From Escherichia phage HEMP5, in sequence record OR424388.1: a DNA stretch of 64,000 nucleotides. The stretch is one strand, 5' to 3'. Below the pieces are notes generated by a model. That model saw nothing but the letters and a program-made list of their open reading frames with translations. It was not told where the DNA came from and did no database searches. This document shows, piece after piece, positions 14,357-15,988 of this stretch (position 1 is the first letter of the stretch; each line of letters starts with the position of its first letter). Position numbers and translations under genes: made by a program.

Positions 14357-14935
14357 TTAATTACCACGGGCTGCATTAGCAACGGCATAAGCGTACTGAA
14401 CATTAGCGTCCTTAAACGTACCTTTAGAGGTATCTATTTCTGCCTTAAAGCCGCCTTTAGCCATAACATCGGCAAATTCTTTACGGAAAGCCATTGCATC
14501 AAGACCTTTCCATGATGATTTGTGCTTAGCGAATTCAAGACCAGCGTAGTTGACAGCCTTAGCTAATTTGTTATCAATAACCCATTTACCAGCTTTAGGC
14601 ACAAACACCGGGCCTTTCTGTTTAGAGAACAGTTTTAAATTCCAGCGACGAAGATCACTGTCGGCTTTAACAAAAGCTGCGTCTAAGTTACTAGCAACAA
14701 CATCCTGAATATGGCCAAATTTAAGCCCATCAACTTCAATATTTAGATCGGTACGCCAGCGAAGTCCTTCCCAAGCGAAGGCTTTAAAATCAGAAGCTTT
14801 TGTAGCTAAGTATCGTTCAATAGGGGCTGTTTTAGGGTCAAAGCCGTTTCCACCACGATAAGTCCACTCGTCCTTATTAATGCCTTGAGCTTTTCCTGCA
14901 AAGGCCTCGGCGATAAATTCTTTGTATGTTTTCAT
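14357..14935 (-). CDS. internal (head) protein, IPIII-sized (192 aa) with capsid-targeting sequence MKTYKEFIAE
   Basis: N-terminal CTS motif characteristic of T4 internal proteins; strong early promoter upstream. Confidence 0.75.
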   Translation of the reverse strand: MKTYKEFIAEAFAGKAQGINKDEWTYRGGNGFDPKTAPIERYLATKASDFKAFAWEGLRWRTDLNIEVDGLKFGHIQDVVASNLDAAFVKADSDLRRWNLKLFSKQKGPVFVPKAGKWVIDNKLAKAVNYAGLEFAKHKSSWKGLDAMAFRKEFADVMAKGGFKAEIDTSKGTFKDANVQYAYAVANAARGN

Positions 14936-14964
14936 TTTTGTTTCCTTGTTTGTTTTGATAGAGT

Positions 14965-14995
14965 AATTATACTATATTAATACTTAAGCGTAAAC
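14965..14995 (-). promoter_or_regulatory. T4 early promoter (GTTTAC -35 / GTATAAT -10)
   Basis: minus-strand GTTTACGCTTAAGTATTAATATAGTATAATTACTC, close match to early promoter consensus. Confidence 0.5.
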
Positions 14996-15060
14996 TGTTT
15001 AAGCTTTACCGCCAGAAATAATTCCAAAGTTGTTAAAATCGTATCCAATATCGTCAACAT

Positions 15061-15162
15061 CTACTTTAGGACTGCACCAAATACGCGTGGTAATTCACGA
15101 TACTCAGCCATAAGATGTTGGTCGGTCAGTTCAGAAACAAGTGTTAAATTGATACGAGTCAT
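15061..15162 (-). pseudogene. denV: denV (endonuclease V, pyrimidine-dimer glycosylase) remnant: first ~31 codons only, then stop
   Basis: manual translation [33 protein letters not shown] matches T4 EndoV N-terminus ([31 protein letters not shown]...) then diverges and terminates. Confidence 0.6.
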
Positions 15163-15186
15163 AATTTCCTCCAAGTAGTTGATGAA

Positions 15187-15219
15187 TGTATAGTATCAAA
15201 ACCCTTGGAGGAAGTAAAC
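15187..15219 (-). promoter_or_regulatory. T4 early-type promoter upstream of denV remnant
   Basis: minus-strand GTTTACTTCCTCCAAGGGTTTTGATACTATACATTC. Confidence 0.4.
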
Positions 15220-15221
15220 AA

Positions 15222-15503
15222 CTATTTTTCTGAAGCGCCTGAAATATATTTTTCAAGACGTTGTTTCATCAGCGAGCCGTTCTTAGCGATTTCTTCCGGT
15301 TTATCGCACATACGCAACAAGGCTTCAAGCTTAACGATATCACTGGTGCGCTCAAATTTGCGAGTATCTATCTTACTAGCAAGTTCAGAAATACGTGCTA
15401 ATAGACTTTCGGCTTCAACCAAAGCTGCACCTAGCTTAGTTGCAAATGTGTCAGTAGCTTCGTTAAGAATAGATTCTGATAAAAATTCACTATATGTTTT
15501 CAT
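15222..15503 (-). CDS. internal (head) protein, IPII-sized (~93 aa) with CTS MKTYSEF
   Basis: track ORF trimmed to CTS Met; ATG overlaps stop of lysozyme e; body homologous to the IP at 23267..23524. Confidence 0.7.
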
Positions 15504-15988
15504 ATATACGCTTTCCAAGTTCCTGTTTTAAATGTTGAGATTACGCGTTTCGCGCGATTAGGTGTCTGACGATACCATTTAGATTGGGCTAGATTTACTG
15601 CTGCTTCATCCCAGCGTTTTTGTTGGAGCATACGTAAAGAATTAGTAAATCCTGCCACGCCGGTTTCTCCCATTTGAAAAACCATATTAATTAATGCACA
15701 GCGGCGAACAGCATCAAGAGAATCATAAACTGGTTTTAATTTAGCATTTCTCAGAATTCCGCGAACAGCAGCATCAACATCCTGATTAAAGAGTTTTTCA
15801 GCCTCATCTTTTGTAATTACACCATTGCAATTACGCCCAATAGCTTTATCTAATTCAGATTTAGCAACACTTAGTGATGGACTTTTAGTAAGCAAATGTC
15901 CAATGCCAATAGTGTAATAGCCTTCTGTGTCTTTATAGATTTTAAGTCTAAGACCTTCATCTATACGTAACATTTCAAATATATTCAT
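15500..15988 (-). CDS. e: endolysin (T4 lysozyme, gene e), 162 aa
   Basis: [35 protein letters not shown]... near-identical to T4 lysozyme over most of its length. Confidence 0.97.

Follow-up and report, generated by a model that had tools for sequence, protein, structure and literature searches.

The minus strand downstream of the lysozyme gene of Escherichia phage HEMP5 (record OR424388.1) raises the question of how a T-even phage came to carry only the beginning of denV, the gene of the pyrimidine-dimer repair enzyme endonuclease V (EndoV), enclosed between two genes for internal proteins. The initial annotation of the 64,000-nucleotide stretch analyzed here (hereafter the window) had proposed that denV was lost by insertion or recombination of a cassette made of an early promoter and an internal-protein gene. 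Comparison with relatives leads to another answer. Very probably, the locus contains a denV pseudogene that arose by a single microhomology-mediated deletion in a Tequatrovirus, within a gene order (e, ip93, denV, ip84, early promoter, ipIII) that is ancestral.

The identity of the truncated gene can be established from its product. On the minus strand, the ATG at position 15162 opens a 33-codon ORF (15162..15061, stop codon 15063..15061) which corresponds to residues 1-31 of T4 EndoV followed by Leu-Lys-stop, the latter read from the out-of-frame tail of ip84. Over the 31 shared residues, a single change (A13T) distinguishes the remnant from the T4 enzyme, and it is identical to the denV product of phage vB_Eco_F25. 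The assignment, initially made by eye, was upheld by tblastn with T4 EndoV as query against the window (E=1.5e-15), by the Pfam family PF03013 (Pyr_excise; 28.3 bits for a cut-off of 23) and by PHROG 1183 (E=1.9e-15), which covers only positions 1-33 of the 139 in the profile; by these measures, the match to EndoV is far beyond chance. In T4 EndoV, the N-terminal amine of Thr2 and Glu23 are catalytic. Both are present in the remnant, which reads MTRIN...AEYRELPR and also retains Arg3, Arg22 and Arg26; Thr2 and Glu23 alone are not sufficient without the remaining fold.

Full-length relatives align to the T4 EndoV structures 2END and 1VAS over residues 1-137, and the remnant therefore represents under a quarter of the fold. 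With 31 codons left out of about 137 (137-138 residues at full length), the 33-aa ORF falls far short of the complete single domain of ~137 residues with its three-helix fold; helices 2 and 3 and the C-terminal WYKYY are missing. Since more than 75% of this single-domain enzyme is absent, the 33-aa product is not expected to be an active pyrimidine-dimer glycosylase/AP lyase, and denV is here to be read as a pseudogene and not as a member of the enzyme family. A search for leftover pieces (tblastn, E<=10) retrieved no other EndoV segment, residues 32-137 included, in the 64-kb window, in agreement with the initial claim that denV is inactivated. In relatives, denV is essentially single-copy, as judged from 1125 matching places in 1119 records, about 25 of these denV-positive records having partial matches only; a second copy in the part of the genome beyond these 64 kb is accordingly unlikely.

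The surroundings of the remnant are well preserved. In transcription order, the minus strand carries nudE (16481..16026, identified from the sequence and the ORF list), two late-promoter motifs, TATAAATA (16022..16002, read from the sequence), the lysozyme gene e (15988..15500, 94% identical to T4 e), ip93, the denV promoter, the remnant, the tail of ip84, a second early promoter, ipIII, a hairpin and a vs.8-like ORF. The gene ip93 (minus strand, 15222..15503), whose start overlaps the stop codon of e, encodes an internal head protein of 93 aa that begins with a capsid-targeting sequence (CTS). It was assigned by PHROG 3499 ("internal head protein", E=1.2e-46), its counterpart gp128 in phage vB_EcoM_Lutter is annotated as an internal head protein, and its product shares 100% of residues 1-84 with the F25 homologue, which has a frameshifted C-terminus and 101 aa. 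The nature of this upstream gene had been recognized correctly at first sight; its start had been misplaced at 15518, the end of a TTG-extended mechanical ORF, the ATG being located at 15503. On the other side of the remnant, the 192-aa gene (minus strand, 14357..14935) is specifically ipIII: its product starts with the CTS MKTYKEFIAE, is 91.7% identical to T4 IPIII over 192 aa and matches PHROG 5341 over positions 1-192 of 192 (E=1.1e-117), and PF26861 (Phage_T4_IpIII) is recorded on identical proteins from Logan contigs. Two internal-protein genes thus flank the remnant, as had been noticed from the letters.

Such capsid-targeting sequences end in (L/I)-x-E, the cleavage site of the gp21 protease. 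IPIII would be cut at MKTYKEFIAE|A and the ip93 product after its 10-residue counterpart, before a serine. Both proteins bear the T4-type sequence MKTY-EF-(I/L)-x-E, and their cleavage and packaging are predicted.

The control signals are likewise in place. The early promoter of denV, GTTTACTTCCTCCAAGGGTTTTGATACTAT (GTTTAC ... TGATACTAT; minus strand, 15190..15219), is identical to a promoter annotated in Lutter, which bears out the first impression that it is intact, and it is homologous to the sequence upstream of T4 denV; a generic sigma-70 scan did not call it (8/12 matches). A strong Shine-Dalgarno sequence, GGAGG, lies between this promoter and the ATG at 15162. The early promoter of ipIII, GTTTAC-N17-GTATAAT (minus strand, 14966..14995), reached 10/12 matches in the promoter scan and is annotated as a promoter in Lutter, so that the claim of a full early promoter driving the 192-aa gene also holds. 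It occupies the same position in F25 and Lutter in near-identical form, with 1-2 substitutions just before the -10 element. After ipIII, the terminator scan detected a hairpin, AGGCCTA-TACT-TAGGCCT then ATTTAC (minus strand, 14337..14354), which is the sole minus-strand terminator-like site from the denV promoter to the end of ipIII.

The origin of the truncation becomes apparent from relatives. The window belongs to Tequatrovirus, its baseplate region being closest to phages ES12 and ES26 (98.5%). The locus from e to vs.8 is mosaic, and its best matches are F25 and Lutter, with ~97% identity on both sides of the remnant junction. Each of these two phages covers 100% of the 1451-nt query in two pieces spread over ~1965 bp, and both have the order e, ip93, denV (137 aa), ip84, early promoter, ipIII (192 aa). 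The gene ip84 encodes 84 aa in F25; in Lutter it is frameshifted and split into two annotated "internal head proteins". Three Logan contigs (L008, L009 and L010) encode the exact IPIII protein of the window. Two of them, L008 and L009, carry an intact denV (137 aa), ip84 and an extra internal-protein gene, ip104; the third, L010, spans 1.7 kb and does not extend as far as denV. As the promoter and ipIII lie downstream of intact denV and ip84 in these relatives, this unit is ancestral at its present position and nothing was inserted.

Alignment of the window with F25 shows what is missing. By BLAST, window positions 16483..15065 correspond to positions 619..2035 of the F25 locus (97.0%), and 15073..12653 to 2543..4966 (97.3%); the F25 coordinates jump from 2035 to 2543 at the junction, and Lutter shows the same pattern. 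The distance from the denV ATG to a common downstream anchor is 101 nt in the window versus 618 nt in F25, L008 and L009 and 619 nt in Lutter, which gives a deletion of 517 bp (518 bp relative to Lutter). There is one clean gap, with collinear flanks at 97% on each side, and, whether the region or a 91-nt junction probe served as query, every best match fell into two or more pieces that span ~500 extra bp. When the alignment was extended base by base, the denV side broke off after ...TTTGGTGCAGTCC and the ip84 side began with AGTCCTAAAGTAGATG.... The deleted DNA comprises denV codons 32-137, a 12-nt spacer and ip84 codons 1-61.

What is left of ip84 is its 3' end (minus strand, 14999..15068), namely the last 23 of 84 codons without a start codon, identified by tblastn and by alignment with the full gene of F25 and L008. 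The tblastn match with ip84 covers residues 58-84 at 15082..15002 (E=7e-12), and 70 nt separate the end of the remnant ORF from the TAA at 14999. The tail is in the +1 frame relative to denV: 517 being indivisible by three, translation from denV enters it out of frame and stops after two codons. Searched by blastn, the 517 bp have not been relocated within the window, where the only recurrence is that of a 35-nt motif coding for the CTS, seen again where ipIII and an internal-protein-like gene near 23190 begin. This CTS-like gene start (23137-23190, minus strand), which matches the N-terminal coding motif of ip84 and ip104, lies upstream, in transcription order, of a tRNA cluster (19517-20782) and presumably marks the ipI-type hyperplastic locus.

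Alignment of the junction with relatives locates a single AGTCC, a 5-nt microhomology, at 15069..15073. Relatives of the Lutter type and the L008 type have two copies of this pentanucleotide at a distance of 513 nt, where the window has one; the undeleted sites form an imperfect pair, TGCAGTCCGTAAA / TGCAAGTCCTAAA, each of which holds AGTCC. For a parent resembling F25 or L009, the exact microhomology would be only 2 nt (CC). Recombination or slippage between these short direct repeats removed 517 bp and left one repeat copy, and the same deletion truncated both denV and ip84, probably at the cost of one packaged internal protein. In T4, accessory DNA of 0.7-6 kb is readily deleted between microhomologies of 6-10 bp (PMC9391042), and the vs.3-denV block and ipIII are among the removable blocks of that genome (PMC9825161). 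The loss is most simply explained as neutral or near-neutral erosion of non-essential accessory genes.

The deletion is, as far as the collections searched indicate, a private allele. A 47-nt junction probe, designed so that neither half alone can seed a match, had no match in 50,697 phage records; an exact 24-mer across the junction was absent from IMG/VR, JGI metagenome contigs and GTDB genomes, and an exact-protein look-up returned no record of the 33-aa product. Because the remnant is still identical to F25 denV, the deletion is probably recent. The absence of the junction from any other record or contig among these collections, together with the speed at which T4-type phages form such deletions in culture (PMC9391042), could also mean that it is not a property of the phage population but an error of assembly or consensus, or else a deletion variant that appeared while the phage was propagated in the laboratory and was then sequenced. 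This explanation is unlikely: a 5-nt repeat does not normally lead an assembler to fuse sequences that are separated by 517 bp, and the flanks are clean and normally diverged (~3%) from those of relatives. A deletion born in culture would moreover still be a real microhomology deletion, for which the molecular description given above stands.

The cassette proposal, according to which a mobile early promoter and internal-protein gene entered denV, replaced its 3' part and thereby traded repair for an injected protein, is very improbable. It had assumed the T4 order (e, ipIII, ipII, denV, followed by vs.8), in which ipIII is upstream of denV and which the window lineage does not share. The proposal draws some credit from this difference and from the mosaic structure of the locus, where extra CTS-bearing genes (ip104, ip109) sit beside the same promoter and CTS sequences in relatives. 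Against it, F25, Lutter and the Logan contigs already have the promoter and ipIII in this place, behind a denV and an ip84 that are intact, what directly follows the junction on its 3' side is the ip84 tail instead of the end of a cassette, and the window junction contains no DNA that relatives lack. Nor could the arrangement of the window plausibly be the ancestral one, since it contains two truncated gene ends. Insertion was thus rejected on the collinearity with F25 and Lutter, in which every base 3' of the junction is found downstream of denV and ip84. Of the initial proposal, the loss of denV stands and its attribution to an inserted or recombined cassette does not, the relatives being collinear across a single gap of 517/518 bp; the supposed exchange for an injected-protein gene is reversed, as the event destroyed such a gene (ip84) and added none.

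Under the microhomology-mediated deletion, several consequences can be expected. The expected loss of EndoV activity makes it reasonable to predict a UV sensitivity like that of a T4 denV mutant (T2-like), that is, roughly two-fold higher, which would be relevant to UV-exposed or UV-inactivated phage preparations. The phage appears to have lost one packaged internal protein, the ip84 product. In T4, IPIII serves as an anti-defence factor against ECOR17 (PMC9391042); should ip84 have a comparable role against a defence system, its loss could narrow the range of hosts. The denV promoter and Shine-Dalgarno sequence are kept and the terminator scan found no terminator-like site between the denV and ipIII promoters, so transcripts should read into ipIII, whose expression should be unaffected or slightly raised, its own promoter being kept too. 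In annotations, "denV pseudogene" and not "endonuclease V" is the appropriate label for the 33-codon ORF, and the 70-nt tail of ip84 does not qualify as a gene.

In the interval from e to vs.8, the set of CTS-bearing internal-protein genes is variable and reaches five members (ip93, ip84, ip104, ipIII and ip109; L008 1575-3947, L009, L010, L001, L002); the alignments suggest that these genes are exchanged at the promoter and CTS sequences which they have in common. Between the ipIII terminator and the start codon of the vs.8-like ORF, a GC-rich element of ~135 nt (14185-14330, minus strand) is 80-100% conserved in T4, T2, ES12, Lutter, ESCO47 and Logan contigs. In T4 it is annotated as the 5' end of vs.8, a frame that the window, T2, ESCO47 and Lutter do not maintain; the indels measure 5, 8 and 12 nt. 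Folding of the element (14185..14330) was no better than that of shuffled sequences (MFE z=0.37), covariation was weak and Rfam gave no match to it; a structured RNA in or near the interval was also discarded, Rfam having returned only a chance snoRNA match. In contig L010, the element occurs twice, on either side of an internal-protein gene, an arrangement that points to a module for recombination or to a regulatory site. The vs.8 homologue itself (13640-14209 and 14190-14291, minus strand) is split: where the T4 annotation has 219 aa, the window has an upstream ORF of 33 aa and a body of 189 aa. The latter starts with MKTFLTG, contains a Walker-A-like motif (GGRQSGKS) and gives weak matches to AAA and large-terminase profiles (PHROG 2, E=3.7e-6; PF13173, E=0.006); the homologue belongs to PHROG 1488, whose function is listed as unknown.

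Natural loss of denV is already known in kind, from T2 and from the Mosigvirus vB_EcoM_ESCO47, and the window is a new allele of ordinary accessory-gene loss. In the complete T2 genome (AP018813, 163,826 bp), EndoV had no match at E<=10. Compared with the ES12-type arrangement (L003 1000-3300), ~421 bp, essentially the denV ORF, are replaced in T2 (L007 7400-8000) by ~23 nt, and the denV promoter is kept, now in front of ip4. The T2 locus sequence is present in seven T2 records; a probe for the ip4-to-vs.8 junction found 294 records, a count which also includes phages with denV upstream of ip4 (ES12 type). T2 is about twice as UV-sensitive as T4, a difference reportedly mapped to the u/v locus in the work of Streisinger in 1956 and Harm in 1963. 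The absence of denV from T2 fits this classical observation. In ESCO47 (OM386662; L006 2501-2629), a 42-codon denV remnant is annotated as "endonuclease V N-glysidase"; it shows 71-75% identity and has substitutions at conserved Arg positions.

These parallels invite the broader reading that denV loss is recurrent and selected in T-even phages living away from sunlight, in gut or sewage, the strong denV promoter being kept and co-opted for adjacent injected anti-defence internal-protein genes. We regard this as doubtful; if true, it would have happened three times independently, in T2, in ESCO47 and, most recently, in the window, whose remnant is free of decay. Scarcely credible is the idea that denV loss was selected with the promoter, Shine-Dalgarno sequence and 33-codon ORF kept for a function of their own, as a small peptide or an ipIII leader: all three independent losses do keep the denV early promoter, two of the three keep 31-38 N-terminal codons and the Shine-Dalgarno sequence and ATG are intact in the window, yet T2 has no coding remnant, the substitutions at conserved Arg positions in ESCO47 are what decay would be expected to produce, ipIII is served by a promoter of its own and three cases are too few for a pattern. 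Read as a simple deletion, the allele adds one recent, undecayed example to the presence/absence polymorphism of denV and internal-protein genes in Tequatrovirus, without any new principle.

The locus can finally be set beside the known systems it resembles. With T4 EndoV, the remnant shares its first 31 residues, the same early promoter and the same site downstream of e, whereas the T4 enzyme has its full 137-138 residues and ipIII lies upstream of denV in T4, downstream here. Similarly, the CTS of T4 IPII and IPIII, which are packaged and then injected, is found in both flanking genes and the 192-aa protein is 92% identical to IPIII; in contrast, neither ip93 nor the deleted ip84 has an equivalent in T4 outside the CTS. 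As in T2, denV coding capacity is gone at the same locus and the early promoter is kept, now preceding an internal-protein gene, but in T2 the entire ORF is gone and no neighbouring internal-protein gene is truncated, while the window keeps an N-terminal stub and the ip84 tail. ESCO47 provides an independent truncation which likewise left the promoter and ~36 EndoV codons, the vs.8 upstream region following directly; it differs by its endpoints, its genus, its T4-like order (ipIII, ipII, denV) and a remnant that has already decayed. A mechanistic precedent is given by the T4 microhomology deletions (Srikant, Guegler and Laub 2022, PMC9391042), which also span sub-kb to kb distances in the non-essential early region, occur at short repeats and keep one repeat copy. 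Those deletions were selected in the laboratory, where they compensated an amplification, and the repeat found here, with 5 exact nucleotides, is at the short end.
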